A DNA stretch of 64,000 bases. Source: a phage. Both the position numbers and the translations under genes were made by a program. Positions 17,890-58,634 of this stretch are shown in pieces. The first letter of the stretch is position 1; each line of letters begins with the position of its first letter. A model generated the notes under the pieces. It saw only the letters and a program-made list of their open reading frames with translations. It was not told the origin of the DNA and searched no databases. Where the stretch lies: the NCBI GenBank assembly GCA_012646185.1, contig GCA_012646185.1_4706.1. The stretch is one strand, 5' to 3'.

Positions 17890-17901
17890 GGAAGATCCTC
17901 C

Positions 17902-18276
17902 TTAAACTCCTTGTCGGATCATCACCAACCGGAGCATGTTGTATTCCAATGTAGCGCTTTCTAATTCGAATTCATATCGATACCAGAAATTCGGCTCTAA
18001 TTGACCTACAACACATTTACGAACATCTGTCTGCACCTTCCTCGACAACACCTGTAACAGTTGTGTTATCTCCGGCTTGAAGTAATGCGCCAAACCTAAC
18101 TGATCAGAATAAAACAGGCCACAATCAAAGATGGCCTGTAAAATAACATATTCAACCATCAGGTGACGCGCATCGGGGTCAGGGAATGGCGAACGTAAAG
18201 CGAGATCTAACACATCGACGATTGGGCCGACATAAATGGCGGCACGGTACTCACGAATAACACTGATGTTATCCAT
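17902..18276 (-). CDS. hypothetical protein
   Basis: 124-aa ORF in co-oriented array. Confidence 0.55.
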   Translation of the reverse strand: MDNISVIREYRAAIYVGPIVDVLDLALRSPFPDPDARHLMVEYVILQAIFDCGLFYSDQLGLAHYFKPEITQLLQVLSRKVQTDVRKCVVGQLEPNFWYRYEFELESATLEYNMLRLVMIRQGV

Positions 18277-18289
18277 GATAACCTATTCG

Positions 18290-19114
18290 TTAACTATCGC
18301 TTTCTGACGTATCGACGTAGTTGAAAATACGATCCCGTAAACACTCGTAACGAGGCAACGCGCTAAGAATGATCATCTTCAACTGCATCGCGATCGATAC
18401 ACGTTCTTCATCCGACGCATCGTCTCCCCATTTACCCGGCTTAACCTGAATGGGTTCATGCGGATCCTGCGGGAATATAAAACTTAACAACAGATAATCC
18501 GTACGGAACTCCCACACTTCTCGACCGTCGTTATCGGTTTCCTTACGCAACGTGAAGAGTTGGCGTTCGGTGGTTGGATCCAGCATCAGCGGTCGGCCAC
18601 GAACAATCTCCAGTTTACGTGGGCTGACGAACGTCGTACGTTCAGGAAGGTATTTTTCAACATCATCCGTATCCAACAAGAACAAAATGATGTCGTCAAA
18701 ATACTTCGGTGCGTACGTGTGTATCGGTTCACCGTCGCTATACGAAGAGATCTCCTGGAGTATTGGCGTCTTAGACGAAAAGTTCTGGCACGAACCACGG
18801 GTGATCGGTAAGGTGGTCCATTGATGTTCTGTAGACAATTCGACAGGCACCAACGGATAATCATCGATGAAGACCACGCACGTTGTACTAATGGGTATTC
18901 TTCCATCATTACCCGGTTCAAAAACCAAACGTATCTTACCTGTAATCAACGCCATCTCATCTGGCATTAAATGGCTTGCTGAACGGGCAAGCCTGAAACC
19001 GCTCGCCTGTTTATAAGGTTCGGGTTTATAGCCACGGACAATAAGAGACACATCCGCAAGTTCAACGCTCACAAATGCATCTTTGGTGTCTTCATTGTTC
19101 GTCGTTAACGTCAT
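18290..19114 (-). CDS. hypothetical protein
   Basis: 274-aa ORF in co-oriented array. Confidence 0.6.
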   Translation of the reverse strand: MTLTTNNEDTKDAFVSVELADVSLIVRGYKPEPYKQASGFRLARSASHLMPDEMALITGKIRLVFEPGNDGRIPISTTCVVFIDDYPLVPVELSTEHQWTTLPITRGSCQNFSSKTPILQEISSYSDGEPIHTYAPKYFDDIILFLLDTDDVEKYLPERTTFVSPRKLEIVRGRPLMLDPTTERQLFTLRKETDNDGREVWEFRTDYLLLSFIFPQDPHEPIQVKPGKWGDDASDEERVSIAMQLKMIILSALPRYECLRDRIFNYVDTSESDS

Positions 19115-44500: not shown

Positions 44501-45897
44501 GTTAATCCAGAACCGTCGGGTGCTTCGATTTCGTGAATGGCGTCAGCATTACGCATCGCTGCTTTATATTGGACGCCGCTTAACTGACCCGCATCAGCCA
44601 GATCGCTCGCGCGTACCAACACCGCATCCGATAACGACTGAATATATTCACCGTGTGTTTTCGGTAGCGTTGCTGCGTCAAAGACATCAACCTTTTCTTC
44701 TTCGGTATCGTCGGTAACGACTTCGAAGAGATCGTCGGTAATGTCCTGATCTTCATCGGGTTGGAAATCTGGTTGTACTTCTACCCCGGGTACTTCACGG
44801 ACATCTTCGAACGAGCGTTCTACAATGGCGTTCCACGCATCAGCGTCATCGTCTTCATCCGACCCGCCGACCAACTCCGCTTCTAACTCATCGGGATCAA
44901 GAACGGTAGCCAGATCCTCACCGTTAGGAAGCACGACGTCGCGATCATCATACTCCGCATCCGGGCTGTCTGCAAGAATATCTCGCTCTTGACGAAGAAC
45001 CTGTTCCTCTTCTTGTTTCTGTTCTTCTTCATTCGCACTCTGCGACCACAAACGTGTTACCGCCATCATCCAACGACGCTGGAAGGTTTCAAGTGTCGTT
45101 TTATCGAGTTCTTCCCCTTCCTTAACAAGCCCGGTACGCCATTCCTCCAGCAGGCCCAGATTCAGCGTAAAGAAGTACACACCGTCCGTAAATACAACGT
45201 TAAGCTTATCCAGCGTGGCTCTGTCTAACGAAGCCATCGTACTGTTCTCACGATCGGTTCCCAACCAGCGGAAGAAGTCAAAGAACGACAGCTCCTCCGG
45301 CGTAGCGAAATTCATGAGGTTGTTACGGGTCGGTGCCTGTTGCGTGGTACGCATCAACGAAATCTTCGGCAATGTTGACGGTATACGGAACAACAGAAAG
45401 TGTTGACGATCGCTTTGCTGTGCGATTTCGTTGGCTTTCGACCAAATTGTTTTACGTACGTTGAACCATTCATCATACCAACGGGTGAGCGTTGGACGAT
45501 AAATGTACATGTGGTTAAGATGCGCGTAGTTAGCCACGATCTGAGCGTTGATGTTTTTCTCCACCGTACTTAGATCAGTGACCAAACGAAAACGACGATG
45601 CGATGCACGGTAATCCAGTTTCGCACGCGGTAGCTGGAATCGCTGATCCCGTCGAGGTGCGCCTTGCTTGGTTGCAAGGTCATCCGCGAACGATATCCAA
45701 AGCTGGGCACTTTCTTTGCTCAGCATGTATTCGTTTTCTGGAGGACCTATCAATGATGGATCCGTTGCGGTGTAATGATAGACAGCATAACGCGGCAGCT
45801 GCAATAGCTGCACTAAACGTAATCTCGGTGACAATAGCTCTTGGTAGCGTCTGACACCGAACTGTCGGTAGTAATCAAGGTATTTAAGTTTTGCCAT
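41551..45897 (-). CDS. RNA polymerase beta-like subunit, large N-terminal fragment type (virion RNAP by synteny), putative
   Basis: 1448-aa ORF directly downstream of the beta-prime-like gene and next to the giant tail-protein gene, as in phiKZ gp178-gp181; C-terminal DLGAGMGDKG...RIIGSP resembles the beta GDKxAGRHGNKG / NPLGVPSRMNIGQ region; assignment is tentative. Confidence 0.5.
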   Translation of the reverse strand: MAKLKYLDYYRQFGVRRYQELLSPRLRLVQLLQLPRYAVYHYTATDPSLIGPPENEYMLSKESAQLWISFADDLATKQGAPRRDQRFQLPRAKLDYRASHRRFRLVTDLSTVEKNINAQIVANYAHLNHMYIYRPTLTRWYDEWFNVRKTIWSKANEIAQQSDRQHFLLFRIPSTLPKISLMRTTQQAPTRNNLMNFATPEELSFFDFFRWLGTDRENSTMASLDRATLDKLNVVFTDGVYFFTLNLGLLEEWRTGLVKEGEELDKTTLETFQRRWMMAVTRLWSQSANEEEQKQEEEQVLRQERDILADSPDAEYDDRDVVLPNGEDLATVLDPDELEAELVGGSDEDDDADAWNAIVERSFEDVREVPGVEVQPDFQPDEDQDITDDLFEVVTDDTEEEKVDVFDAATLPKTHGEYIQSLSDAVLVRASDLADAGQLSGVQYKAAMRNADAIHEIEAPDGSGLTLAEYVEVKPKAAKLAPAKVMPEADVIVDKSLCKSTLAVWDKHYVEHVMQKDIAAAVVAVQQAGYPVTGYKVEDVVDVMGDYQVITIKLAPVGGVPTTFPVMLPKVRKDGIYVVNGIKYRMRKQRVDKPIRKVSSSEVALSTAYGKVFVKRSERVVNNAGRWLTRQLTAMYYDKSSPLTTLKRGNVFDPAVKVPYYFAVLARNYTQIQFADWDIRLDTKTLPEFIGEDRFNEQLAEGLLTFARNTLGEFLAIDKRNQLYICQSGQTPTPVGTFPDFFGINAAKMPIEAADLEFMGVRIPVGVVLSYLGGLTPLLEHLKANYRTVPRGSRMGLAPDEFAVSFDDESLIFSKDDRMTTLLLGGFNEYRNYIGYARGAFDNRDIYFNVVDGAGLKVRHLRELELMERLFVDPVSRTLLQNMGEPTDFAMLLLRAVELLLDDWAPNTNDVNYQRFKTYDKFAELVYKDLVGAIRQNENSSQGNRQKISISPVSVWNQILDDSASIVIDETNPMLDIKQGEEATMTGIGGRSKTSLRRARDREYDKSDVGIVSEGTKDSGDVGISAYLAPNANIVSVYGETRPFDEKTDGISSVMSTSALAVPAVDRDDGKRLVFVGIQHNRMIAAEGYDVQPWRTGGETVIAHRVGKLFAAAAQGDGVVKKVTKTALTIQYDDPELGEEVFQLGTIIGKGPGKYYPHDLITDYKVGDRVKDQDVVVFHRLYFKRDWWNPGQVVWRAGVLSLVGILDIPETHEDSSYIFDNLADRLVTPSIKSRTLIVDAHLNIRGLVKIGDHVEPRTILATLEEPIATDLSDESQEAVEALRRMSQYNPRADVHGEVVQIDVLYRAQIEDMSETMAALVGEADKARAKRVKELKLNEATTGRINNSNVRIDGNPLGENQIAIRIFMRYDLGAGMGDKGTFAAQAKSVVSSVGHGVNKTEDGHTLDAIFSGTSIANRIIGSPEVVGTVNLGLLYATERAVDIYFNDAK

Positions 45898-46080: not shown

Positions 46081-49000
46081 CCTTGTCTTCGCCTCAGGTC
46101 GCTACGCTGAGACCGCCTGCATGGATACGTACATCACAGGCTGCTTGCACTTTCATGCAAGAGGAGACTATATCAAACCGGCAGCGCAACCTGCTACGGT
46201 AACCTACACTTCGAAGACGCTCGTCCTCTACAGGGTGGTAAATCCCTTAGTCGTTGAACCTGCGTTGTTTCACATTCTTGTTTGTAAGAATGTCGTATTA
46301 CTACGCAACAACCAGGCTGCTGATTGCCCATTGTTTCGCACCTTAGCACCGCTTACGCGGCTTTTCTTTCAGCCTAAGCCTCTTACGGAGGTAGTGCATC
46401 TCAACTGTTGTTTCTGCCTTTCGGCACCTCATGGGTCGTTGAGCTTTAGGGGTTCCCAGCATTTCGTAGGTTTTTCAAGCACTCCCTTTCGGGAATACCG
46501 GACTCATTATTAGCTTATTTATTCAAGTATCTGAAATCCCACTTATCTTTACGTCGTTTATCGCACTTGATGTCAGGATGATTAACACGATGCCTAATAG
46601 TTGTTGCCGATAGCTGGCTGAGATTCTCAGCAGATCGTGCGCCAAGAACAACGAGTTTTGTGTCGTCTGGACGCGTAACTTCTACTGCCCGATAATGCTT
46701 ACGTAACACATCACGCCAATATTCACGACGTTCTGGTTCAGCATACTCAAGCATGTAACCGTTAACATCTACTAAACCGTAGCTTTCGTTTAATCGAGAG
46801 GTAGCGGCTGGTTTACTAATACCGATTGCTTTAGCCGCATCGACCACGGTTTTATACGGGGTCTCATTACCGTCTCTATCTACAACCACAATGAAATCTG
46901 GACGTGAATCGAGTAGCTGCTGTCTGCGTTCGACGGCTTGTTGATGAAGCACCATGTTAACGTGTTCGAACCCGTAACCTTCTGGACCGTGCCACCCTGG
47001 ATTGTTATTCGCTCGATAAAGTACCGTCGCAGATTTCACTCCAGTCTGACGTGACGCCTCGTTTGCACTATGAACAACCGTGGTAGAGCCGTCAGGGTGA
47101 TATATCCGTATCTGGTTCATTATACCGGAACCAATGAAGTTACCATCAGCTGATTTAATATCCGGCCATGGTTGAGGATCATCTTTGAATTTAACCACCC
47201 AGCGGTTATTAAACAGTTTGACTTTTCGAACATGTTTGCCCATTGTCGTATCCGTAACACCTGCGACTACTGATGCCTGTGTGATACTCAGGTACTCAGT
47301 AACGGTATCGTTCCATGTATCCCAAAGCAGAACCGGTTTATTGTCGTCGCGTAAACCGTATTCGATGGCGTGTAGAACGTTACGACTTCTGGTCGCCCAT
47401 TCAAGATTATCGAGAGAGTAATTCCATTTGTCGGCATCGAGATGATTAACGTCCAACTTATCGACATTAGCCGGATATTCCCGCCACGCCAACATCAAGC
47501 AGCGATGCAGAACCTTAGTTCTCGTTACATCCCGACAATCATGACGTAGACTAATGAATACGTAATTATCCTTTTTCGGATACGATCTACATTCCTGACC
47601 GTCTTTGCGGCGAATAACTCGTCCTTTCTCATTTATCAGATAACGGGTGTGTCCAGGAATGACACGATAACCAGGGTACTTAGCGATTTCGTAAGCAGGC
47701 TCGAACCGATAGGATAAATTATCAACATCCCAGTTAGATTCGTCACCATCAACAAACATCGCTTTGACGTACTTCTGTGTTTCAATATCAACCAGGATGT
47801 TTTTGTGTGCGATACAAATCAATGCTGGGATATTGAATTCACGACCGGCTAAGATAACCATGTCGCCATTTCTCGGTATCACGACGTGGGTATCACGATA
47901 CCGTAAATTTCCATAGCCGTCTATTTCAATCCAGCTTAGAAACGGAATGGATATAAACTCTTTTTCAGATACTCGCCATTTAAACATCTTAATACCTATT
48001 TAATACTAAACATCATATTAATAGGTTTAAAAGTTAAAAATGACAGAAAATGGCTAAATTGAATCACCGCCTAAACCGGCGAGGTACGGGGCAGGAACAA
48101 TAGTAGTTTCTACGAATGATGCATTAGGTAACCAGTCGGGGTATTCCCATGCGATAAATCGTTCATCCGTTATTGGTTCCCAGTTACTATCCAGTTCGGT
48201 TTTCGGTTTTGCCGCAACGGTTGTACGTGCGTAACAGGTTAACGGGATAACGGATTGCATACCGGATACCGGATAACGTGTTACCATCGCAGCCAGGTTA
48301 TTCCAGTACTTATAACCAGCGATATAAATAAGCTCGGTGTAAGTAATGGGGTGAACATCCGCACCAGGCTTATTCAACATCTCCGGAGGTAATTCACTCA
48401 TACCACGGAATAACCGAAACGAATCATTGTTCACATAGACGAGGCAAAGATATCGTCCATTGACCATGATAGGCTCGTTACGCACGCCAGGATCGCTTAA
48501 GGTGTTCAGTAAACGTTCTATTCCGTCCCAGGTTGTAAAGTCATCGATGGTGTCTGGATCAAGCGTGACACGTTCACGTTCCATCGTTTCGGTATCAATA
48601 AGTTCAACTTCTGTAACGTCACGAACAAATATTTCCTGCAAAATACCGGTACGTAACGCATGTTGCGTTACTGGGAGAGCAGCTTTACTCATCTGGTATA
48701 ACCCTAACTGAACTGCGGTACAGGAAGGCTGGTTAGGCGACCCTAATACCTCCGTTGTGGGGTTAATTGCCGAAATAACGTTACGGGTTGAGTTCCAAAC
48801 GCGACGTGAACCAAACTTCCCTTGGAAGATCCCTTTCTTACCTTGGAACATATCCAACAACAAAGCGTAGATATCGTTAAACGTTCTCTGTAAGCTCCAG
48901 CGTTGGCCGTCGTAAACGGGATCGGAATAATCTTTTAATCCATCAGGGACGGTGTTAGAAATTGCAAGGAAACGACGATACAACTCCGTGATTTCTTGCT

Positions 49001-49529
49001 CGCTTTCATACCCACCTTCTTTTACTTCTATTTCACGTAAACCCGCAGGTAAAACCAGTAGATGACGAGTCATCGCTTTGAACATGTTCTCTTCGACGAC
49101 TTTAATTCGTAGCTCTCGTTGAGCTGAACCCGTTGAAACGAACTTAATATCAGCGACGTGTTGTGCAAAGAACCCGTACCCTGTCTGTCCTGTTAACGCA
49201 TCAGACGCAACGAAGTCGCGTTGTTCAGGATCCCAACGCGCGTACGCCTTCCCCGACATGATATCGCCATAGAGGTGTTTTAGTCGAATGAGACGATCGT
49301 AGATGACAGGATGTAGGATTTCAACCTTGCATTCAATCACCGCAAATCGACGGTCTCGATCTTCACTACCCGCACTACCAAAGATGGTGTATGAATAGAA
49401 ACCGTCATCGTGGAAATTACCGGTGCTTGGATCACGAATGCTCATGCTCGTGATCTTGGGGAGAAAACGTAACTGCTGTTTATCGAGGTGTAAAATACTA
49501 ATATTAAACGGCTCTCTGACTTTAGCCAT
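45901..49529 (-). CDS. RNA polymerase beta-prime-like subunit, N-terminal fragment type (virion RNAP by synteny); gene interrupted by a group I intron
   Basis: Exon 1 shows GLFxxxIFGP-like (DGFYSYTIFGS), QGKFGSRRVWNSTRNVISAINP (cf. [26 protein letters not shown]) and TRYPVSG (cf. NRAPTLH); splicing 48063..49529 to 45901..46080 gives ...YLAGLGGD-FDGD-TVSVNV... (548 aa); AAGAGGAG SD before the ATG at 49529. Confidence 0.75.
46081..48062 (-). ncRNA. group I intron carrying an HNH homing-endonuclease ORF (mobile intron)
   Basis: Minus strand: 5' exon ends GGT GAT (U); ORF 46515..47987 lies in the 5' part; core follows with P-like GAAAUGCUGGGAAC (plus 46451-46465), Q-like AAUCAGCAGCC (46314-46324), R GUUCAACGACUAAG (46246-46260), S GAUAUAGUCUC (46164-46174), P7 GACUA/UAGUC; ends in G. 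Confidence 0.8.
46515..47987 (-). CDS. HNH homing endonuclease (intron-encoded)
   Basis: 490 aa; HNH_3-type motif VNHLDADKWNYSLDNLEWATRSRNVLH; C-terminal helix-turn-helix-like AKAIGISKPAATSRL; lies entirely within the intron. Confidence 0.8.
   Translation of the reverse strand: MFKWRVSEKEFISIPFLSWIEIDGYGNLRYRDTHVVIPRNGDMVILAGREFNIPALICIAHKNILVDIETQKYVKAMFVDGDESNWDVDNLSYRFEPAYEIAKYPGYRVIPGHTRYLINEKGRVIRRKDGQECRSYPKKDNYVFISLRHDCRDVTRTKVLHRCLMLAWREYPANVDKLDVNHLDADKWNYSLDNLEWATRSRNVLHAIEYGLRDDNKPVLLWDTWNDTVTEYLSITQASVVAGVTDTTMGKHVRKVKLFNNRWVVKFKDDPQPWPDIKSADGNFIGSGIMNQIRIYHPDGSTTVVHSANEASRQTGVKSATVLYRANNNPGWHGPEGYGFEHVNMVLHQQAVERRQQLLDSRPDFIVVVDRDGNETPYKTVVDAAKAIGISKPAATSRLNESYGLVDVNGYMLEYAEPERREYWRDVLRKHYRAVEVTRPDDTKLVVLGARSAENLSQLSATTIRHRVNHPDIKCDKRRKDKWDFRYLNK
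48063..49529 (-). CDS. exon 1 of virion-type beta-prime-like gene (489 codons)
   Basis: ORF-track ORF 48054..49571 trimmed at both ends: start at the SD-supported ATG 49529; the last two track codons (S, I) and the stop are intron sequence. Confidence 0.65.
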
Positions 49530-49591
49530 GGAGACACTCCTCTTTACCACCACCGGCTGCGGCGGTATCATCTGAACACACGAGAGACGTA

Positions 49592-49637: not shown

Positions 49638-49774
49638 TTACTAGGTTACGTACCTGCCTGATTTTATCAGGTGGGCGATGTGTGAAGTTATGCTTCAACA
49701 TTATCAATGCCGAAGGTAAACTTCGTGCATCACGTTCCAACGTAACATGGGAACGTATCGAACTGGAGGTATAC

Positions 49775-52700
49775 ATGGTAGATAAAACCCGTGTTGAGGG
49801 TGATGATAATTGGGACAACTGGGATGAAGACTTCTCCCTGGATCTCGATTTTAACGAACCCAAAGACGATCGTAAACCGATAACACGCTTTGCGATAGGA
49901 GCGGTTAAAGGTGCTGCTGAAGATCTTACTTCCTACGAAAGAATGAGGGAGATCGCCAGAAACGCATTGCCTAAGGGCTACAGCGACGGTATGGATCTTA
50001 TCGATTCCGCCGTCGGATCCACGAAGGAACTATACAATGAAGCCGTTCGTGACGTTCTTCCTAAGGTCCAAAGCTCAAAACGGTTAGCCGCACAACTGAC
50101 CAAGAAATACCGTGCGAGCATGCCCGATTTCTCGAAGAAAATTCTTGAGCAATGGGAGCAAGAAGCCAAGGAAGAAGACGAACGTAAAAAAGCTGAAGAA
50201 ACCCTTCGTCAACGCATGGCGAGCGCAGGGGACGATGAGATCGCCCGCAAGGTTGCCGAGGCATTAGGCGAATCAGCAAACCAAAGCGCGGATCAGTTCG
50301 CTGAACAGCAAGCGAAAGAGAGTATCCGTGACGATATCGCTGACAAACGGTACGCTGTAACCAACAAACAAATGAGTGCGATGCAAGAAGGCGTCGCCAA
50401 GATGGTTGGTTTCAACAATGAATTCGCTGCGCGCTACATGCGTAAAAGCCTGGAACTGAAATATCGTTCCTTAGCGATTCAGCGTGCAAGTTTCGACCAG
50501 CATAAAAAGTTAGCCGAAGTCTATATCGGTTTATTACAAAACATCCAGAAGAATACGGCTTTACCTGATGCGGCTAAAGCGAAGATGTCGGAAGAATTCC
50601 GTCGTAGTGCATACCAACGTTTCTTTGGTAATGCGTTAGATGCGATGGGTTCTTTCGAGAACCGTTTCTTTGCCGATGTTAAGAAGAACCTCGCCACCAA
50701 CGCATTAGGTGCTTTAAAAGGCGTCGTGTCTGGCGCAAACGATGCGTTATACGGTTTAAACGAAGCACGTGACTCGATGTCCATGATGGACGGGATGGGG
50801 TCAGAAGGCGATATTAAGGAAATGCAAGGAAAGATGTTGGGTCAACTTATCGGCTCAACTGTCGTACCATGGATGGCTGATAAAGGCAGGATGGCGTTAC
50901 GCGATTTAGCAAAACGTCACCCCAATGCTAAATTCGCTAGCGCGTTAAAAGCCGTGGATCAAGGTGGTGAGGCTGCCGCTTACACGACGCGTAATCTCGG
51001 TAAACTGCTCCAGGAAGATATTCGTAAAAACGAATTCAATCTTAGCGATCCGTTTTACAAGCAATTGTTACGCGGTGCAGGGCGTTGGGCTTTCAACATG
51101 GATAGCGGACGTAACTTCCGCGTGATGAACGACACCGCTGAAACACTGGCGGAGCAAACGTCTTTCGACGGTTTAACCTACCGCAGCATCAACGAAGTTA
51201 TTCCAGGCTTTCTTGCACGCATTCTGAAAAGCAGTGAAGGTATCCGCACCGGAAACAGCGATCCTGATTACGAGGTCTATGACGGCATCAGCGGGCAATT
51301 CGTGTCTCAGCGCACGCGTGAACAAAGCGTCAATGACACGCTGTTTAACAAACGTACATTTGGTTATTACGCCAGCCGTTTCAACGAGGTTATCTCGGTC
51401 ATCGATCCCGATAAACAATTATCGGAAAAAGCCAGGAAGGCACTGGCTAAACAGTTGGCACGAGATAGCGACGCGAACATCGCATTCGACCCGGCTCGTT
51501 TTACGGATGAAAGCAACTTCGATCGTAGCATTGACCGTGACGCTATTAAGGAACTTTCCACGTACTTTCGTGACCGTTACGGTATTCGTGATGATGTCAA
51601 CGATAAGGGCGAACGTCATCAGGTCATTGGAAACCGCGGGCAATATTACACGGAACGTAACCGAGCCGACCTTCGCTACGGTAATTTGAAATCGTTACAA
51701 CCGGATATCCAGCGTAACCTTAACCTACTGAAACGTACTGGTGACGTCCAATATCTGGAACGTATTGGTATTGTAACGAGAAATAGCGACGGAAGTTACT
51801 CGGTTAATCACGATAGGTATTTCTCTGAAATCGATCGGTACATCGACCGACCGGAGTACGCTGAACGTAGTGATGTTAATACGCGATTAACCGCTCAGGA
51901 AACAAGAGCGCTGGCGTTGGGTTATCGTGACGCAAAACCATCAGTTGATGACGTCCAAAATGCGGGTCTGCCGAACATCGATCGTAAGGCTGTTGGAACA
52001 GTAACCGTTGATGAAAACATCGGCTACGATAAATGGTGGAACGACACAGGTGTTATCACCACATCGCTTGAAGAACAGAATCGAGCATGGCAAGAGCTTT
52101 ATCTCGAAGCGTTATCTGAAGCATCCGAACAACGTGTTGAGATGCTTGCGTTGCTGAAAGCCATTTCTGAGAAAGACTGGTCTAATAACGTTTCGCTGGA
52201 TGGTGAAGACGTGCCTGAAGGCGCAGCACCTATTTCATTTATTGATCGTGCCAAACAAAAACTTGGCGGACGCAACCTCTTTAAAGGTGGCCGTAATCTC
52301 CTCTGGAAAGGAATTAAAAATACCGCACGTTTAGGTGTTAAAGGCGCGCGCTGGGGTGCAGAACGCACGTTGGGTAGTTTGGTAAATTCCGGCCGACGCA
52401 TTATCAACTTCAACCGCTTCGTGTTCGGTGCGTTATCCAAGGTCGATCAGGTTCCGTTTGACATTTACGTTAAAGGGGAATCCCAACCACGCATACTGGC
52501 TGCCAAACTTCGTCAGGGGTTATACTTCGACGAGGCGACAGGAAAAGCCGTCAAACGGATGAAGGATATCAAAGGCCCACTCGTTGATGCAGATGGAAAC
52601 ATCGTAATCAGCAACGAGGATATCGAGAAAGGGTTGGTCACTCGCGCCGGTCGTGCCTTTGAGAATTCAGGACTTAAAGCATGGGCGCGTGAAGGTCTTA

Positions 52701-55700
52701 ATGGAATCACGACGGTATTAAGTCTCCCACGGATGTTAAAACGCGGTGCGGTCGAGATCTACAAGCAGCTTGACAAAACACCCGACGTTTACGTCAAGGG
52801 AGAATCAACGCCTCGTCTGTTGTCCATGGTGTTAGCAGCGGGTGGGTATTTCCGTCGCTCGGATGGACAAGTCATCAAAAATCTTGAAGACATCGATGGT
52901 GATGTTGTTGATGCACAAGGTAACGTCGTACTTACGCTTGCCGACATGCAGAAAGGACTTGTCGATAAATACGGTAAAGCGATTCGTCGCTTAAAAGAAA
53001 AGCTCATCAACTTCGGTGTGAAAGCTTTCACGTTACCGTTAACGCTGCTACGTAAGACAAAGGACATCCTTAAAGCCCTTCCAGGTAAAACCGTTAACGG
53101 TCTACGACGGATGGGATTAAATGTCCAATCACCCGACGCATTACTGGTGGGAACAACGTCGAGCATGGTAGATCGGCTCGATGCGATTTACCAGCTTCTT
53201 GACCAGCGTATGCCGGGTGGTGATAAGGATTATCGCGATTGGAATGGGGATGGCGTTCGAGAAGGATCGTTGGAAGACCTGAAACGTAAGCGTGAAGCCA
53301 AGGAAAACGGTAAGGATGACACCGGCAAAGATTCCAATAAAGGAGAAGAAAAGGAGAAGAAACGAGGATTACTCGGAAGCCTTTTCGATATGCTTGGCGA
53401 TACCGCATTAGGTAAACGACTCATGGCGAGTCCGCTTGGAAAAATTCTAGGCGGTCTTGGGGCGGTGTTAAGCGGCGGAGCATCGTTAACCGGATTGTTG
53501 GGCAAGGGTCTCATTAGTGGAACCGGCGCGCTAGTCAAGGGAGGACTAAGTGCGGCAGGATGGTTAGGACGTGGTGCGTTAATGGCGGGTGGGGCTGCAT
53601 TGAACGCCGTTGGTGGGTTATCGGGATTAGGTGCATTCCTCATCTCACCTGTTGGGCTTGCTATCGCTGGCGGTGCATTGGCTGCTTATGCTGGATGGAA
53701 GATCTATCAGCATTTCGCCGAGAAGCCTGACCCGATGCAGAAGCTCCGTCTTATTGCATACGGTGCAAAAGGGGACGATAAAGACTTCAATAAGAAGCTG
53801 CTTGCGACAGAAACATACCTCACCGACCATGTGGTTATGACCGGGGATACCATCGGATTCGATCCGAAAGCCGACTCGGAAAAGATTCTCGAAATCTGGG
53901 AATTGTCCCTGGAAGATTCCGACCGAATGAACGAATGGAAACGCTGGTATCTGCATCGTTTTATTCCTGTTTTCGCTCGTGCGTACAAACTCTGGAAAGA
54001 GCATATGCCGGACGAGAAGAAATACATGGAAATGGATAAATATCCGAACGGTGAGAACAAAGTGAAATGGTCGGAAGCGTTTATCTGGCCTTCCGATAGT
54101 CCTGACGGTCCGTATTACGTCGAAGCTAACCCGTTGGGTTCTTCTGGTGCGACGCGTTATATTGCTGGTCAAGACGTCAAAACCTTGATGCTGAAACAAC
54201 TCGAAGCCATCAAGAAAGAGTACCAGAATCAGATCAAACAATACTCTCATGATGAGGCTATTGCTGATTGGTCACGGATGTCTGACACACAGCGTAAATC
54301 CGTTGCGCCTAACGCATTACGTGGTCAGAAAGCGTCGTTACGTTTTAACGATAAACGTTACAACAGCGCTGGTGCTAAAGGACGACAGAAACTGGATGCA
54401 ACCGCGGTTATTGAAAGCGTAGACCGCCGTGGTAGAAAATGGGTTGCCGGTGGATACATCGATGAACTCACCAGTCTCCGTGTTCGCGCGTACGGTATCA
54501 AGGTTCCGTTGTTAAGCCAGATAAAAGTGCTGATGGAACTTGAAGACGCTGTAGAACCTGGCGTTGTCGCTGAAGGTAAAGGTGTTAAATACGGTGGCGA
54601 TCTTGTCGCGCTCTACAAGAAATTCGCGACGAAGTTCGGAAGAGACGTTAACAGCAAGCATGATCAGGATATCTGGTTTGCTTGGATGAACAACCGTTTC
54701 CTGCCCGTCTTTTTAACCTATTACCAACAAGTTAGCGAAATGGGCGGTCAAGGACTTCTGTCCGACGTGGTACAGAACCTGAAAGACAGCCAACGCTGGG
54801 AAATCGGTGAAGCACTTGTCGCAACACAATACCGTGATGAGAAAGGTACACTGCAGCCTGTATGGTCCTGGAATAGTTGTGGTTTCTCCGGTACTGAAGC
54901 TAACACCACCAGCAGTTCAACAAAGAGCCAACTCGATCTGTTAAAAGAATATGCGGATAAAGAGAAGGTTCGTGAGAAGAACGCGGAAGCATCGCAAGAG
55001 GATACCGATAAATTATCGAAGATCCAAGAGCTGATGATGAAGCAGGCTGGGTACGAGAAGAAGGACGGTGTCTGGCAGAAGAAATCTCGCATTACCGGCG
55101 GGATGAGTAACTCCGAAGCGAATTACAACCCCAATAGGAATAAGGTCGGTGAAAGCAGCTTTACGGCTTCGGCTACTTCCAATGCGGGATTGGGATCAAC
55201 CGGCGATCTTACTGGATTGCCTAACATGGGCTTACAGAAACCGGCAATGGGACCAGGTCCTGAAGCTGGACGTCGTGCGCTTGTTAAATCCGCTGTAAAA
55301 CGCGGCATTACCGATCCAATGGAAATGGCGATGTTCCTTGCGAACATCGAACATGAATCGGGGAACTACACTCACGTACGTGAGGGGAACTACAAGACGC
55401 CAGAGCGTCTTAAACAGGTCTTCCCTTACAAATTCCGTGATGTGCAGGATGCCGCACAGACGATCAGCATGGGGCCGGAAGCGGTATTCGAACGTGTGTA
55501 TGGTAATCGTAAAGATCTCGGAAACACACAGAAAGGAGACGGGGCGAAGTATTTAGGACGCGGCTTCATTCAGGTTACCGGTAAAGCTAACTACGCTCGT
55601 CTGTCTAAGACCTTGAATAAGGATCTTGTCAGCGATCCGACCTACCTGGAAACGCCGGAAGGTGCGGCGGAAGGTAGTGTTGCATGGTGGCTCAACCGAG

Positions 55701-56440
55701 GTAACGTATTACGCGATCCCGCAAAACGGGGTGACGTACGCCAAGTTCGTTATCTGGTTAACGGTGGGTTTAACGGATTACGTGATGTTGAACAACGTTC
55801 AGCTTATTGGATTCAGGCGGCTAAGAATGGCACCCTGAAGAAAATGATGGACGAGTTATCAGGGTCAACATCAGACGATCAAGCTGAAGGACCAACCACT
55901 GCCGAACAGGTGAAGAACGAAGCAGCACAAGAGGCAAACGGAACACCTGCTGTAAGCAACGATCCGCAAGCCCCAGCATCTTCTACTACCCCTGAAGCTA
56001 AACCGTCTGCGGCTGCCGGGACGGCCCCAGCACCTGGAGAAGCATCACCAACGCCCGGAAGTTTCGAAACAGCAAAAGCCGCGGCAGGACAACCGACATC
56101 AACTCCAGCACCTAGCGATTTGCCGTCAAACCCGGGTGCAAATCGAGGGATATCGGTTCCGAATACACCTGCACAGGTTGCGCAGTCTGCGACACAAACG
56201 TCGGCTGCAAGTGAGAACTTCTACGGTAGCGCAGGTGAAATTCTCCGACAGCAGCTGACCACGCAGCAGAACATCGAGAAGAACACCGGTAGAACGAATG
56301 AACTTATTTCGGAATTAATCCAAGCCGTTAAGGGTTCTTCTATCGGTAAGGGTTCTGCAAGTCCTTCTCAACAACAGGCGATGTCGCTACCTAATCGTCC
56401 GCAAGGAATCTCTCCAACACGGACAAGGTACGCACAGTAG
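49775..56440 (+). CDS. giant tail-associated protein with C-terminal GH19 (chitinase-like) peptidoglycan hydrolase domain
   Basis: ORF track 49682..56440 trimmed to the ATG at 49775 (GGAGGT SD); ~2,220 aa; Gly/Ala/Leu-rich hydrophobic segment (approx. 53400-53700); GH19 signatures AMFLANIEHESGNY, YLGRGFIQVTGKANY and SVAWWLNRG at approx. 55270-55830; positional analogue of phiKZ gp181. Confidence 0.8.
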   Translation: MVDKTRVEGDDNWDNWDEDFSLDLDFNEPKDDRKPITRFAIGAVKGAAEDLTSYERMREIARNALPKGYSDGMDLIDSAVGSTKELYNEAVRDVLPKVQSSKRLAAQLTKKYRASMPDFSKKILEQWEQEAKEEDERKKAEETLRQRMASAGDDEIARKVAEALGESANQSADQFAEQQAKESIRDDIADKRYAVTNKQMSAMQEGVAKMVGFNNEFAARYMRKSLELKYRSLAIQRASFDQHKKLAEVYIGLLQNIQKNTALPDAAKAKMSEEFRRSAYQRFFGNALDAMGSFENRFFADVKKNLATNALGALKGVVSGANDALYGLNEARDSMSMMDGMGSEGDIKEMQGKMLGQLIGSTVVPWMADKGRMALRDLAKRHPNAKFASALKAVDQGGEAAAYTTRNLGKLLQEDIRKNEFNLSDPFYKQLLRGAGRWAFNMDSGRNFRVMNDTAETLAEQTSFDGLTYRSINEVIPGFLARILKSSEGIRTGNSDPDYEVYDGISGQFVSQRTREQSVNDTLFNKRTFGYYASRFNEVISVIDPDKQLSEKARKALAKQLARDSDANIAFDPARFTDESNFDRSIDRDAIKELSTYFRDRYGIRDDVNDKGERHQVIGNRGQYYTERNRADLRYGNLKSLQPDIQRNLNLLKRTGDVQYLERIGIVTRNSDGSYSVNHDRYFSEIDRYIDRPEYAERSDVNTRLTAQETRALALGYRDAKPSVDDVQNAGLPNIDRKAVGTVTVDENIGYDKWWNDTGVITTSLEEQNRAWQELYLEALSEASEQRVEMLALLKAISEKDWSNNVSLDGEDVPEGAAPISFIDRAKQKLGGRNLFKGGRNLLWKGIKNTARLGVKGARWGAERTLGSLVNSGRRIINFNRFVFGALSKVDQVPFDIYVKGESQPRILAAKLRQGLYFDEATGKAVKRMKDIKGPLVDADGNIVISNEDIEKGLVTRAGRAFENSGLKAWAREGLNGITTVLSLPRMLKRGAVEIYKQLDKTPDVYVKGESTPRLLSMVLAAGGYFRRSDGQVIKNLEDIDGDVVDAQGNVVLTLADMQKGLVDKYGKAIRRLKEKLINFGVKAFTLPLTLLRKTKDILKALPGKTVNGLRRMGLNVQSPDALLVGTTSSMVDRLDAIYQLLDQRMPGGDKDYRDWNGDGVREGSLEDLKRKREAKENGKDDTGKDSNKGEEKEKKRGLLGSLFDMLGDTALGKRLMASPLGKILGGLGAVLSGGASLTGLLGKGLISGTGALVKGGLSAAGWLGRGALMAGGAALNAVGGLSGLGAFLISPVGLAIAGGALAAYAGWKIYQHFAEKPDPMQKLRLIAYGAKGDDKDFNKKLLATETYLTDHVVMTGDTIGFDPKADSEKILEIWELSLEDSDRMNEWKRWYLHRFIPVFARAYKLWKEHMPDEKKYMEMDKYPNGENKVKWSEAFIWPSDSPDGPYYVEANPLGSSGATRYIAGQDVKTLMLKQLEAIKKEYQNQIKQYSHDEAIADWSRMSDTQRKSVAPNALRGQKASLRFNDKRYNSAGAKGRQKLDATAVIESVDRRGRKWVAGGYIDELTSLRVRAYGIKVPLLSQIKVLMELEDAVEPGVVAEGKGVKYGGDLVALYKKFATKFGRDVNSKHDQDIWFAWMNNRFLPVFLTYYQQVSEMGGQGLLSDVVQNLKDSQRWEIGEALVATQYRDEKGTLQPVWSWNSCGFSGTEANTTSSSTKSQLDLLKEYADKEKVREKNAEASQEDTDKLSKIQELMMKQAGYEKKDGVWQKKSRITGGMSNSEANYNPNRNKVGESSFTASATSNAGLGSTGDLTGLPNMGLQKPAMGPGPEAGRRALVKSAVKRGITDPMEMAMFLANIEHESGNYTHVREGNYKTPERLKQVFPYKFRDVQDAAQTISMGPEAVFERVYGNRKDLGNTQKGDGAKYLGRGFIQVTGKANYARLSKTLNKDLVSDPTYLETPEGAAEGSVAWWLNRGNVLRDPAKRGDVRQVRYLVNGGFNGLRDVEQRSAYWIQAAKNGTLKKMMDELSGSTSDDQAEGPTTAEQVKNEAAQEANGTPAVSNDPQAPASSTTPEAKPSAAAGTAPAPGEASPTPGSFETAKAAAGQPTSTPAPSDLPSNPGANRGISVPNTPAQVAQSATQTSAASENFYGSAGEILRQQLTTQQNIEKNTGRTNELISELIQAVKGSSIGKGSASPSQQQAMSLPNRPQGISPTRTRYAQ

Positions 56441-56489: not shown

Positions 56490-58634
56490 ATGGGTATTCT
56501 TGTTCAAAACGCCCTAATCACCAAACAGGCATTTTTATTACCGGGCGATAGCAGCACGCTGAGTGCCGACATGATTAAAGCGAGACATACACCGTATTCC
56601 TACGATAACGTCGATGATACCACCTTAGGTGGGAACTGGGTGCTTAACCCGCCGCCGCAATATACAAAATTTGCCGACATCAAAGAACGCCGACGTGCGG
56701 TTATGCCGGGATCAACGGGTATGGGTCGAGGCTATAGTGAAAGCATTAACAGCTTTAAAGAAGTCGTTACGTTACGATTCGGTAAACCTCGCTTTACAGG
56801 CGCAAGTATCTTCTTTACTGATTTCTACGATGCGGATGTTGCCGTAACGGTTAAAACCGGTCGCGATCCCGGTATTCTTTATTACGCGGCCAAAGCGTAT
56901 ACCACCGTTCTTTCTTACCTCACACCGCTACCTTACTTGTATATGGTTGGACGTATCGGTCGATATTTCCTGGGTAAGCCAACCAGTCAATATTACTATC
57001 AAGTACCAACCATGCATGTGTATTGGGCGTCTTTCCAGACGTTGGTAAACCAAACAGCGATAAACATGGGTCTTATCGCCGGTGCCGGTAAAGATAAAGG
57101 CTACGTGGAAGAAGGAGGTACCGTACTCCACCAATATTCAATCGGTGGTCAGAACGTTGAAGAATTCATCAACTACGCCTCTAAGACGCTACCGGGGATT
57201 TATAAGAAAGGTGGTGGGATCGATATCTACCAGATTGCAACACGTCGTCAGCGCATACAGAACGCATGGGTACGTCGTATTCAATCCATGATGGAAAACG
57301 ATTACTCGTCTTACGAGGAGTTCTGGAACGATCTTGATAAACGACTTGATAGTGGAGCATTTCCATCGGATGTAACCGGTCGTACGTTAACGCAGTATCT
57401 CGCCGATGTGCAGAAATCTAAAGTTTATAGCGTCGAAAACAAAGGCGATAATAAACAAACAATGGACGACCTTTTATTCGGAAGGGCCACATACACCAAC
57501 AAGGATGCTGATGCCAACTTCAATGTCTCAGCGGCTACCTCCGACGGTGGTACGTCAACACAGAGTCAGGGCACAACAGCCAATGTCGGTAATTCGACGT
57601 CAGGGACAACGCAGGCTTCAACAGCAGCATCGACGGCTGGAGGAGCGAACGTACAGAGCAAAGGAATCGGTCAAACAAATGCGGCCGAGGAAGCTAAGTT
57701 TCTTGATCTGATGGATGCTGAACTGGCCGATGGCGCTCAGTTTATCAGTTTTCGAGTCGACTCTGTCACCAGTGTAACCGAAACGTTTTCAAACAGTGCT
57801 TCAGAAAGTTCAATCGCGCAGACGATGAACAGTCGTGCGCAAGCGAACATCGAACGTCGTTTCACCCTTTCCGGTGGTAATACAGGTTGGGCTATATTGG
57901 ACGAAGCCATCAAAGCCGGTTCCGATCTCGTTAATGGTGCTATTTCCGGGATGGGCCTGGATGGTATTTTTGGTGCCTTCATGGGTTCCGGCTTCGCTGA
58001 CATTCCGAAATTCTATTCCGGATCATCGGTAAGTCTTCCACGCGCAGATCTAACGATGGAATTGCGTTCTTGGAGTGGGGACCGCTGGTCGATCTTTACG
58101 AACCTCATGGTACCTCTTTTAGCGATCCTTGCAGGTGGTTTACCTCAGGCTACCGGTAAATCGTCCTACGGGATGCCATTCATGTGTGAGTGTTATATTC
58201 CCGGTAAAGTTCAGATTAAAATGGGCCTTATCGACAACATCACTGTGACGCGTCATGTTGGAAACGTACCATCGACACGCGAGCGATTACCGTTGGGTAT
58301 CGACGTCAGCTTCAGCGTTTATGACCTGTCGTCCATCGTCGCCATGCCGATCACAACGACGGCCGCATCGATCGCAAAACTGGATCCTCGCGGCTTCTTA
58401 AGTGATCTTCTTGCTGACGATACGCCGCTCAACAACTATCTTGCTGTATTATCGGCATTGACACTTACGGAACAAGTTTACATGATTCCGGATTTAAGTC
58501 GTCGCATGCATAAAACCATGGCTGATATCGATAGTTTCTGGAGCAAAGGTAATTTTGCTAGCTGGTTGTCTGACACCATGCCTGGCAGGATAGCATCAGG
58601 GCTGTTATGGAAACGTACAGAACGACCGTTCTGA
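56490..58634 (+). CDS. hypothetical virion protein (714 aa)
   Basis: Long ORF with GAGGAA SD, co-oriented with the giant tail-protein gene. Confidence 0.7.
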   Translation: MGILVQNALITKQAFLLPGDSSTLSADMIKARHTPYSYDNVDDTTLGGNWVLNPPPQYTKFADIKERRRAVMPGSTGMGRGYSESINSFKEVVTLRFGKPRFTGASIFFTDFYDADVAVTVKTGRDPGILYYAAKAYTTVLSYLTPLPYLYMVGRIGRYFLGKPTSQYYYQVPTMHVYWASFQTLVNQTAINMGLIAGAGKDKGYVEEGGTVLHQYSIGGQNVEEFINYASKTLPGIYKKGGGIDIYQIATRRQRIQNAWVRRIQSMMENDYSSYEEFWNDLDKRLDSGAFPSDVTGRTLTQYLADVQKSKVYSVENKGDNKQTMDDLLFGRATYTNKDADANFNVSAATSDGGTSTQSQGTTANVGNSTSGTTQASTAASTAGGANVQSKGIGQTNAAEEAKFLDLMDAELADGAQFISFRVDSVTSVTETFSNSASESSIAQTMNSRAQANIERRFTLSGGNTGWAILDEAIKAGSDLVNGAISGMGLDGIFGAFMGSGFADIPKFYSGSSVSLPRADLTMELRSWSGDRWSIFTNLMVPLLAILAGGLPQATGKSSYGMPFMCECYIPGKVQIKMGLIDNITVTRHVGNVPSTRERLPLGIDVSFSVYDLSSIVAMPITTTAASIAKLDPRGFLSDLLADDTPLNNYLAVLSALTLTEQVYMIPDLSRRMHKTMADIDSFWSKGNFASWLSDTMPGRIASGLLWKRTERPF

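Follow-up and report, generated by a model that had tools for sequence, protein, structure and literature searches.

The DNA analysed here (the window, 64,000 nucleotides) belongs to a phage closely related to Escherichia phage Goslar, an E. coli jumbo phage, and it encodes a giant protein that is the orthologue of phiKZ gp181. The lytic module of this protein is a GH19 domain of the endolysin type with intact catalytic residues, not an SLT domain. We consider it probable (about 0.7) that this Goslar-type chimallivirus member of the gp181 family is a low-copy, tape-measure-like tail protein of the virion, which carries a lytic cassette and is ejected at entry.

A giant gene at the gp181 locus

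48054..49571, minus strand: virion RNA polymerase beta'-like subunit, equivalent of phiKZ gp180 and Goslar gp231 (Goslar annotation)
49765..49769, plus strand: Shine-Dalgarno sequence GGAGG, 5 nt 5' of the ATG at 49775 (direct sequence reading)
49775..56440, plus strand: giant virion protein CDS, 2,221 aa plus stop (ORF list)
56490..58634, plus strand: 714-aa virion protein, Goslar gp233, portal adaptor (Goslar annotation)

The giant gene lies in an uninterrupted ORF at 49682..56440 on the plus strand (2,252 codons counted from GTG), and more than 2,200 stop-free codons at 48% GC cannot have arisen by chance. Initiation at the GTG at 49682 would give 2,252 aa and initiation at the ATG at 49775 gives 2,221 aa; the size of the protein is roughly 245 kDa. 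The N-termini of homologues line up with the ATG, which is also the start assigned by NCBI PGAP to the identical protein EFI3629404.1, whereas the database model of Goslar gp232 begins 31 codons earlier, at GTG. Goslar gp232 (QBO64023.1 / YP_009820915.1) is for practical purposes the same protein with the same neighbours: the amino acid identity is 98.4% (2186/2221 residues), the nucleotide identity is 96.8%, and the 35 substitutions are spread along the protein with none at active-site residues. The closest relative other than Goslar is the metagenomic protein P0053 with 48% identity.

The first 1,200 residues matched phiKZ gp181 by tblastn (E=3e-29, 80% of the query covered), and blastp aligned residues 35-693 (E=3e-42) and 887-1730 (E=1e-34). 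The order of the minus-strand beta' gene, the plus-strand giant gene and a plus-strand gene for a virion protein of ~700 aa was the same in all 15 chimalliviruses inspected besides Goslar. Both flanking genes served as synteny anchors, the beta'-like gene being the divergent upstream neighbour at all loci inspected. A Pfam search of the 714-aa downstream protein gave no matches; its Goslar counterpart gp233 has been assigned as the portal adaptor by cryo-EM (preprint 10.64898/2026.04.21.720040). Because the sequence match and the conserved gene order coincide, the giant protein is the orthologue of phiKZ gp181, which upholds the slot proposed in the first-pass annotation. The synteny in phiKZ is identical and gp181 is similar in size (2,237 aa). 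Homology of the scaffold extends over residues ~35-1730 and takes in three elements described below: the tandem repeat, the block of charged and hydrophobic residues, and the M3 domains.

Architecture of the scaffold

49862..51844, plus strand: module M1, the most conserved part of the scaffold (aa ~30-690)
52442..53083, plus strand: tandem duplication A (aa 890-1000 and 1000-1103)
53225..53365, plus strand: DxDxDG-like motif DWNGDGVREGS followed by a Lys/Glu-rich stretch (aa 1151-1197)
53366..53710, plus strand: Gly/Ala/Leu-rich hydrophobic block, candidate membrane-inserting segment (aa ~1198-1312)
53714..54286, plus strand: M3 domain B1, family-specific alpha/beta domain (aa ~1314-1504)
54452..55036, plus strand: M3 domain B2, duplicate of B1 (aa ~1560-1754; alignment and AF2)

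Module M1 aligned in 27-28 of the 29 family members compared, matched phrog_3201 (labelled 'tail fiber protein') with E=2.5e-295 and retrieved 1,636 cluster representatives in an exhaustive HMMER search. The two units of duplication A share the pattern 'DxYVKGExxPR...DIxGxVVDxxGNxV' and are both present in the family consensus; their local alignment score was 184 compared with 28.8 +/- 5.0 for shuffled sequences (z=31). The family consensus also keeps the motif 'GDxDGDGxRxGS', and the Lys/Glu-rich stretch behind it contains 58% charged residues (measured over aa 1151-1200). The two M3 domains are duplicates (alignment z=6.5) with the same order of secondary structures in the AF2 models and the common motif W..W...RF.PVF.

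The hydrophobic block contains 26% Gly, its 19-residue Kyte-Doolittle mean reaches 1.9, and residues 1267-1308 form a 42-residue run free of charge. A comparable block is found in most family members, whereas that of phiKZ gp181 is shorter and weaker with an uncharged run of 27 residues. Since several Lys and Arg residues lie inside the block and a check for GxxxG motifs found no enrichment, transmembrane insertion of this segment is only putative. The low-complexity Gly/Ala/Leu stretch and the Lys/Glu-rich region noted earlier N-terminal of the GH19 domain are therefore both present; the hydrophobic stretch does not adjoin that domain, however, but lies ~520 residues upstream with the conserved two-domain region in between.

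A GH19 cassette with an intact active site

55037..55258, plus strand: low-complexity linker, the cassette junction (aa ~1755-1828)
55259..55948, plus strand: GH19 catalytic domain, endolysin subfamily (aa ~1829-2058)
55949..56224, plus strand: Pro/Ala/Ser/Thr-rich disordered tail (aa ~2059-2150; composition, AF2)
56225..56437, plus strand: C-terminal segment with the amphipathic helix-like stretch QLTTQQNIEKNTGRTNELISELIQAV (aa ~2151-2221)

Homology to members bearing SLT stops at residues ~1730-1830, whereas homology to members bearing GH19 runs to residues ~2115-2186. The three GH19 signatures quoted in the first-pass annotation were found letter for letter, AMFLANIEHESGNY at aa 1852-1865, YLGRGFIQVTGKANY at aa 1926-1940 and SVAWWLNRG at aa 1968-1976 (together nt 55328-55702). 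A Pfam search, as had been proposed, returned GH19 (PF00182) as the sole lytic match in the giant protein and no SLT match, but the GH19 score of 18.2-20.7 bits was below the gathering threshold of 25.5 bits. Solved lysins matched strongly in phmmer (PaGH19Lys, 9EOI, E=3.3e-24; SPN1S endolysin, 4OK7, E=6.6e-19), and the domain matched phrog_181 (endolysin) with E=5e-53. The AF2 model of the domain (pLDDT 89.6, pTM 0.80) had only GH19 proteins as top Foldseek matches, with lysins and effectors ahead of GH19 chitinases. These matches, together with the intact triad and the predicted GH19 fold, bear out the proposal that GH19 rather than SLT occupies the gp181 slot.

The active-site residues are H1860, E1861 (55355-55357), E1870 (55382-55384), Y1909, Q1933, T1935 (55577-55579) and N1996. 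Six of them (E1861, E1870, Y1909, Q1933, T1935 and N1996) are invariant in the 26 GH19 domains of giant proteins, and H1860 is kept in 12 of the 26. E1861, E1870 and T1935 are equivalent to E49, E58 and T130 of the SPN1S endolysin, the conserved triad of GH19 endolysins (PMC8547705). PaGH19Lys (a proven muramidase without activity on chitin; PMC12329726), the SPN1S endolysin and KTN6 gp46 (8P8E) have the same catalytic domain and fold and the same constellation of H, E, E, Y, Q, T and N. Muramidase chemistry is accordingly predicted for the present domain. Free-standing GH19 endolysins are soluble enzymes of ~200 aa released by holin at the end of infection, whereas here the domain is part of a 2,221-aa virion protein, close to its C-terminal end, and would work from the outside as the phage enters. 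The bacterial effectors TfcB (T4SS, PDB 7R6S) and TseP (T6SS, 8XCL), which are among the top structural and sequence matches, likewise deliver a GH19 module from outside into the periplasm of the target cell, although they use their own translocation domains and are unrelated beyond that module.

About 160 residues remain C-terminal of the GH19 domain. They include the Pro/Ala/Ser/Thr-rich tail anticipated from the first inspection (these four amino acids make up 58-68% of aa ~2051-2150), and the AF2 pLDDT is <70 past the domain. When the final 110 aa of 15 members were aligned with MAFFT, the C-terminal stretch showed weak similarity between SLT- and GH19-bearing members. The family consensus ends in '...PVSMxK'.

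Exchange of cassettes in the gp181 family

Among 180 family members, the cassette was SLT in 122, GH19 in 26, peptidase M23 in 13, and GH73 and Phage_lysozyme2 in one each, all at the same junction. GH19 is thus the second most common cassette. SLT is found at this place in phiKZ, PhiPA3, 201phi2-1 and SPN3US; in phiKZ gp181 the cassette, also ~350 aa from the C-terminus, is SLT (PF01464) with a lytic transglycosylase/lysozyme-like fold in contrast to GH19 here. GH19-bearing homologues occur in phages of Erwinia (Ea35-70 gp161, RAY, Deimos-Minion, Joad, PhiEaH1), Ralstonia (RSL2 ORF039), Aeromonas (PS1), Vibrio (phiKT1019) and Klebsiella (N1M2 gp221, 'putative structural lysozyme'). Their scaffold, cassette type, junction and synteny are all the same as here, but their GH19 domains are only 31-43% identical to the present one and reach or approach the Pfam threshold (25.4-48.5 bits), compared with 20.7 bits for the Goslar-type domain. 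The novelty that the first-pass annotation implied did not stand, as the GH19 cassette is common in the family and had been annotated before, in Goslar as in many other phages; many isolates carry the names chitinase or structural lysozyme.

Virion location and proposed role

Presence in the virion has been shown for the 98.4%-identical Goslar gp232, which gave 34 peptides with 24% coverage in LFQ-MS of virions (Table S4) and is present in about 3.4-8 copies per virion (preprint 10.64898/2026.04.21.720040). In Pseudomonas phage phiKZ, orf181 is essential and was described as a likely tape measure (PMC12676376), and muralytic activity of gp181 has been measured (review PMC5380687). The models of the Goslar cryo-EM preprint and the phiKZ atlas do not include gp232 or gp181, and the Goslar authors assigned all hub, spike and inner-baseplate density to other proteins. 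A Pfam search of the giant protein found no tape-measure domain, and the gene lies outside the classical chaperone-TMP-hub arrangement. The length of the Goslar tube, 1,801 Å, corresponds to 1,201 residues in helical form, and the hydrophobic block of the Goslar protein begins at residue ~1198; in phiKZ the tube of 1,622 Å corresponds to 1,082 residues, but the block begins at ~1250. Tube length and block start do not scale between the two phages.

T7 gp16, an internal head protein, resembles the giant protein in having a lytic domain and membrane-active segments. A protein of this kind would be packed in the capsid, ejected and built into a trans-envelope channel, its lytic domain and hydrophobic block acting after exit through the tail. 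The gene has virion RNA polymerase subunit genes on one side and the gene of the portal adaptor on the other, and chimalliviruses eject many capsid proteins, which fits such a role. We nevertheless regard it as unlikely: SPN3US gp239, established here as a gp181 family member, is missing together with the tail tube protein from tailless, head-only particles (PMC5105663), and the Goslar MS table labels gp232 a tail protein.

The first-pass annotation had called the protein 'cell-puncturing/tape-measure-like'. The former half follows the classical description of phiKZ gp181 as a T4 gp5-like device at the tip of the baseplate (listed in the review PMC5380687 as 'needle-like cell-puncturing device, putative trimer'); 201phi2-1 gp276 is annotated 'putative cell-puncturing device', and about 3-8 copies per virion would fit a trimer. 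It is now outdated and highly improbable, as the Goslar cryo-EM spike is gp13 and its cap gp48, with the surrounding density accounted for, a Pfam search of the giant protein gave no OB-fold or beta-helix needle signature, and AF2 predicts helical or alpha/beta globular domains for M3 and GH19. The latter half is an inference.

We give equally little credence to a phage endolysin that ends the infection by lysis from within, as suggested for Goslar by Korf et al. 2019 (PMC6563267). The closest solved GH19 relatives are endolysins and several orthologues are annotated as such, but a 245-kDa low-copy virion component orthologous to structural gp181 argues against this role. Furthermore, holin or spanin neighbours are absent (Goslar annotation), Goslar has a separate small endolysin, gp024 (GH108+PG_binding_3), and the complete phiKZ lysis cassette gp141-144 does not contain gp181 (PMC12894885). 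The GenBank/RefSeq product names 'putative chitinase' and 'tail fiber protein' given to Goslar gp232, the latter also the phrog_3201 label, almost certainly mislead, since the domain falls into the endolysin subfamily of GH19 (chitinases E of at least 0.0075, lower TM-scores), the characterised PaGH19Lys does not cleave chitin, the host E. coli has none, Pfam and AF2 revealed no receptor-binding, beta-helix or fibre-like domains, and the fibre label was propagated from PHROG/RefSeq without supporting evidence.

Lytic tape-measure proteins such as T5 pb2 and mycobacteriophage TM4 Tmp unite three elements in one polypeptide: an extended scaffold or ruler, a segment that is hydrophobic or fusogenic, and a muralytic domain at the C-terminus. 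T5 pb2 (described by Boulanger et al. 2008, according to PMC5380687) may be a functional analogue, although it is a siphovirus protein with a lytic module of a different type and no sequence kinship is expected. For the giant protein we infer muramidase activity, a location in the tube lumen, ejection, membrane insertion and a length-ruler function. It would enter the virion together with the tail, the lumen being the most plausible place for such a tape-measure-like protein, and be expelled ahead of the DNA upon sheath contraction. The GH19 domain would then act as an inverting muramidase, in which E1861 and E1870 act and T1935 positions the water, and cut MurNAc-GlcNAc bonds to open the peptidoglycan locally, while the hydrophobic block may engage the inner membrane and help form the entry conduit. 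The giant protein is thus most likely a tape-measure-like tail protein that is ejected and cleaves peptidoglycan as the phage enters, built as its family is, with a conserved scaffold of ~1,750 residues followed by an exchangeable peptidoglycan-hydrolase cassette.

The giant gene and its product

An uninterrupted reading frame is present on the plus strand at 49682-56440 in the ORF list. The ATG at 49775, with GGAGG at 49765-49769 (5 nt upstream), gives a protein of 2,221 aa. An upstream GTG at 49682 is the start in the GenBank and RefSeq models of Escherichia phage vB_EcoM_Goslar, giving 2,252 aa and 248.68 kDa; the 248.7 kDa in a published MS table is the figure of this GTG-start model. We favour the ATG from sequence comparison, because the N-termini of homologues in the HMMER family set align to it and PGAP picked it for the identical protein EFI3629404.1 of an E. 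coli assembly. The giant-gene region shares 96.8% nucleotide identity with Goslar, a nucleus-forming jumbo phage of the Chimalliviridae. Over its 2,221 positions the giant protein shows 35 differences from Goslar gp232, all outside the active site. GenBank names the Goslar gene product 'putative chitinase', RefSeq 'tail fiber protein'. Of the 615 members of the giant protein's 90%-identity cluster, many come from isolate assemblies of E. coli and Salmonella enterica, suggesting that Goslar-like jumbo phages are frequent passengers in enterobacterial isolate sequencing data; the cluster sources include contigs of 236-250 kb.

The features that the first-pass annotation had described, namely three GH19-type motifs, a K/E-rich stretch, a Gly-rich hydrophobic block and a PAST-rich tail, are all present, and the quoted motifs lie at aa 1852-1865, 1926-1940 and 1968-1976 (nt 55328-55702).

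Features of the giant protein (plus strand)
aa ~30-690: M1, scaffold module and universal core of the family, followed by a variable stretch
aa 890-1103: tandem duplication (z=31, directed local alignment with shuffling)
aa 1151-1200: K/E-rich stretch
aa ~1155-1165 (window ~53237-53269): DxDxDG-like motif DWNGDGVREGS, family form 'GDxDGDGxRxGS'
aa ~1198-1312: Gly-rich hydrophobic block, kept in most members, shorter in phiKZ
aa ~1314-1754: M3, duplicated domain (B1 and B2)
aa ~1829-2058: GH19 domain
aa ~2051-2150: PAST-rich tail, after the GH19 domain
after the PAST-rich tail: C-terminal helix-like segment, weakly common to SLT- and GH19-type members

Self-BLAST of the giant protein found no internal repeats, and the duplication emerged with directed local alignment. 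The motif DWNGDGVREGS resembles a DxDxDG calcium-binding loop and lies just ahead of the K/E-rich stretch and the hydrophobic block. A glycine zipper in the hydrophobic block was ruled out, since GxxxG occurs there three times as against 7.4 expected from shuffles, without enrichment. No structural relatives of the M3 duplicated domain or of the charged/hydrophobic block were found outside the gp181 family.

The lytic module is a GH19 domain of the endolysin type

Pfam GH19 (PF00182, Glyco_hydro_19) was the sole lytic-domain match in the giant protein and no SLT domain was found with Pfam, but the GH19 match stayed under the gathering threshold of 25.5 bits, scoring 18.2 with the full protein and 20.7 when the C-terminal part was searched by itself. 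It was confined to 39 residues at the GRGxIQ(L/V)T core, and NCBIfam gave only noise on the full protein. The Pfam threshold is a criterion of model sensitivity, not of biochemistry. With the Pfam GH19 model, scores of 25.4-48.5 bits were reached by seven of the eight GH19-type lineages sampled, and a 99%-identical fragment is named 'glycoside hydrolase family 19 protein' by NCBI. Because Pfam stayed below threshold and NCBIfam returned noise, we base the assignment on the matches in the PDB and PHROGs together with the structural prediction.

The PHROGs search assigned aa 1835-2058 to phrog_181 'endolysin' (E=5.4e-53). When the domain was compared with PDB sequences by phmmer, it matched the free-standing GH19 endolysins PaGH19Lys (9EOI, E=3.3e-24) and SPN1S endolysin (4OK7, E=6.6e-19); further matches were TfcB (7R6S), two soil-metagenome endolysins and KTN6 gp46, and plant and bacterial chitinases matched only at E>=0.0075. 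The triad of the SPN1S endolysin, E49/E58/T130, consists of a catalytic Glu-Glu pair and a water-coordinating Ser/Thr (PMC8547705), with which E1861/E1870/T1935 of the giant protein align. Likewise, H1860, Q1933 and N1996 align with H50, Q127 and N188 of PaGH19Lys (PMC12329726). Every one of the 26 GH19 domains from giant proteins keeps E1861, E1870, Y1909, Q1933, T1935 and N1996 unchanged. The bilobal all-alpha GH19 fold is seen in an AlphaFold2 model of aa 1820-2065 (37 sequences, pLDDT 89.6, pTM 0.80). Foldseek against the PDB at E<=1e-3 returned 18 chains, all of them GH19, with endolysin-type structures first (leading matches 7R6S, 9EOI, 8XCL, 9MS7, 4OK7 and 8P8E) and chitinases later.

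PaGH19Lys cuts MurNAc-GlcNAc bonds and not chitin (PMC12329726). The PHROG and PDB matches, the aligned triad, the predicted fold and the chemistry of PaGH19Lys thus assign the domain, by alignment and structural model, to the endolysin subfamily of GH19 (CAZy GH19 / GH19ED 'ELYS') and make it most probably a muramidase. By analogy with PaGH19Lys, it would hydrolyse the MurNAc-beta-1,4-GlcNAc bond with inversion. The GH19-type hydrolase domain proposed from the sequence is therefore borne out by the matches, the conserved triad and the predicted fold. Chitinase was rejected as the product identity because the domain belongs to the endolysin subfamily, 'chitinase' being a historical family label. 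No second GH19 or SLT gene was found in the window.

The giant protein is the counterpart of phiKZ gp181

The enzyme-free first 1,200 aa matched phiKZ gp181 in tblastn (E=3e-29, 80% coverage) and 259 phage records in all, and pairwise blastp showed that the homology with gp181 spans aa 35-693 and aa 887-1730 of the giant protein. A word-indexed protein search with the N-terminus returned only 15 relatives, and exhaustive HMMER was needed; with the N-terminal part it yielded 1,636 representatives of 50%-identity clusters, among them 874 at E<=1e-30, and almost all are of 1,800-2,600 aa. The gene order, a vRNAP beta'-like gene on the minus strand, the giant gene and a gene for a 660-770-aa virion protein, is identical in 16 phages.

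Phages sharing the gene order, by C-terminal cassette
GH19 (8 of 15 isolate lineages, Pfam scan): Goslar, Ea35-70, RSL2, N1M2, PS1, Joad, phiKT1019, PhiEaH1
SLT (7 of 15 isolate lineages, Pfam scan): phiKZ, SPLA10, PhiPA3, 201phi2-1, 2050HW, Eowyn, LucasX
SLT (cassette of gp239): SPN3US

The divergent orientation of the giant gene to the vRNAP beta' subunit gene is the conserved position of the gp181 family. The earlier identification with phiKZ gp181, made by position, thus holds through both gene order and sequence homology. The GH19 domain begins ~390 aa from the C-terminus; in the whole family, GH19 and SLT types alike, the cassette always starts 305-540 residues from that end. We conclude that the giant protein belongs to the gp181 type of virion peptidoglycan hydrolases, here in a Goslar-like phage and with a GH19 muramidase-type module. 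Tail fibre was rejected as the product identity since the gene encodes a gp181-type virion peptidoglycan hydrolase; the only PHROGs assignment of the scaffold was phrog_3201 'tail fiber protein'.

The gene adjoining the giant gene on its 3' side (56490-58634, plus strand) encodes a 714-aa equivalent of Goslar gp233 that had no Pfam match. All chimalliviruses inspected have a homologous gene of ~660-770 codons after the giant gene, and Goslar gp233 was assigned as the dodecameric portal adaptor (2026 cryo-EM preprint 10.64898/2026.04.21.720040).

Lytic cassettes are exchanged on a conserved scaffold

The census covered 180 proteins, comprising the best 150 of the 1,636 representatives, 15 earlier matches and 15 isolates, which were typed with local HMMs and then with Pfam for the remainder.

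Cassette types in the census (n=180)
SLT: 117, and 5 divergent SLT-like
GH19: 26
Peptidase_M23: 13
GH73 glucosaminidase: 1
Phage_lysozyme2: 1
no recognisable cassette: about 11
truncated fragments, left unclassified: 6

The view that a different fold occupies the same slot was correct in that GH19 stands where phiKZ has SLT, but this is not unusual, given its occurrence in 8 of 15 isolate lineages and 26 of 180 census members. Annotations already in use include 'chitinase', 'putative lysozyme domain protein', 'putative structural lysozyme' and even 'tape measure protein', and the RP12/RP31 paper explicitly called the gp181 homologue 'chitinase-like' (PMC5468394). GH19 in the gp181 slot is already known, as an annotated protein and as a common state of a very large family.

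Homology to SLT-bearing members ends at aa ~1730-1830, whereas that to GH19-bearing members runs to aa ~2115-2186. The junction of the exchange is thereby placed within aa ~1755-1828, a low-complexity linker. On a neighbour-joining tree of M1, GH19 members fell into about 13 groups with 13 changes between GH19 and other cassettes, and changes of all types numbered 22 as against 37.6 for shuffled labels; these counts are upper bounds only, because the M1 distances are saturated (~1.7 substitutions per site). In a tree of GH19 domains, 19 of the 26 giant-protein domains formed one clade, so a few GH19 acquisitions would be as plausible as the ~13 suggested by the M1 tree.

A subgroup of the gp181 family has no recognisable cassette (cluster representatives P0056, P0057, P0067, P0072, P0110, P0126, P0148 and P0157). 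Its members are of 1,691-2,411 aa, most near 1,850, and end soon after the M3 region. The existence of such members indicates that the scaffold can exist without a lytic module.

Location in the virion and function

Label-free MS of purified Goslar virions detected the 'putative chitinase' (248.7 kDa) with 34 peptides and 24% coverage, estimated it at 3.4-8 copies per virion and labelled it a tail protein (10.64898/2026.04.21.720040, Table S4). The detected protein is 98.4% identical to the giant protein of the window. According to the cryo-EM study of Goslar, gp13 forms the spike and gp48 its cap, and gp232 is not among the modelled proteins (10.64898/2026.04.21.720040); the phiKZ virion atlas omits gp181 (PMC13250141). 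SPN3US gp239, a gp181-family member by genome record and gene order, is missing from tailless particles and was called tape measure (PMC5105663), which by analogy indirectly supports a tail association of the giant protein. In phiKZ, orf181 is essential and was described as a likely tape measure (PMC12676376), and muralytic activity of gp181 was measured (PMC5380687). In the best-supported model, the giant protein would belong to the tail at low copy number and leave it when the tail contracts, with the GH19 module opening the peptidoglycan and the hydrophobic block engaging the inner membrane. It may lie in the lumen, act as a ruler and insert into the membrane.

The Goslar tube of 46 x 39.16 A (1,801 A) corresponds to 1,201 helical residues, and the hydrophobic block starts at aa ~1198; the phiKZ tube of 43 x 37.73 A corresponds to 1,082 helical residues as against a pre-hydrophobic segment of ~1,250 aa. 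The ruler arithmetic fits Goslar but not phiKZ, showing no scaling with two phages only, and the Goslar match (1,201 and ~1198) may be a coincidence. No TMP domain was found in the giant protein at E<=1 with Pfam and NCBIfam. We would keep 'tape measure' as a hypothesis for this protein.

A spike lysozyme of the T4 gp5 type was rejected, since neither an OB-fold nor a beta-helix needle was detected in the giant protein by Pfam or in the AlphaFold2 models, and the Goslar spike and cap are other proteins; the old 'cell-puncturing' label should be dropped for Goslar-type phages. The giant protein is also not the lysis enzyme, because Goslar has its own endolysin and phiKZ a complete lysis cassette (PMC12894885).

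Stand-alone endolysin candidate of Goslar, outside the window
17700-18335 of the Goslar genome record (L016), minus strand: gp024, GH108 and PG_binding_3

In fold, gp024 resembles neither the GH19 domain of gp232 nor phiKZ gp144, an SLT endolysin.

An intron in the virion RNA polymerase gene cluster

Two vRNAP-beta-like ORFs on the minus strand enclose an intron and an HNH_3 ORF.

Features of the cluster (minus strand)
48054-49571: vRNAP-beta-like ORF
46515-47987: HNH_3-domain ORF, resembling phiKZ ORF179, with the intron directly 3'
46144-46530: group I catalytic intron RF00028 (56.3 bits, full-length model match)
41551-45897: vRNAP-beta-like ORF

The pair looks like a mobile intron and a homing endonuclease lodged among the virion RNA polymerase genes, and the Goslar annotation carries the same intron/HNH feature.

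Implications for the gp181 family

Chimalliviruses inject their genome into a membrane-bound early-infection (EPI) vesicle (preprint 10.1101/2023.09.20.558163). The charged/hydrophobic block and M3 could be a device, delivered by the virion, that enters the inner membrane to seed or shape this vesicle, although we consider this improbable. If it were true, the SLT, GH19, M23, GH73 or Phage_lysozyme2 cassette would only clear peptidoglycan ahead of the device, and the giant protein would be an entry organiser specific to nucleus-forming phages, beyond a tape measure with a lysin.

The main result for the window is a corrected annotation, neither chitinase nor tail fibre. Among the free-standing GH19 relatives are some of the lysins with the highest known activity on Gram-negative bacteria, and the domain at aa ~1825-2060 is therefore predicted to be a reasonable enzybiotic candidate. 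New here are only the family-wide picture of cassette exchange and the structurally orphan M3 domain. At a single junction, a scaffold of roughly 1,750 residues, conserved in >1,600 sequence clusters, takes peptidoglycan hydrolases of at least five unrelated folds. The family is thus a clear-cut case from nature of a virion-associated lysin that exchanges its cassette, and offers a ready-made design rule for engineering proteins of this kind.
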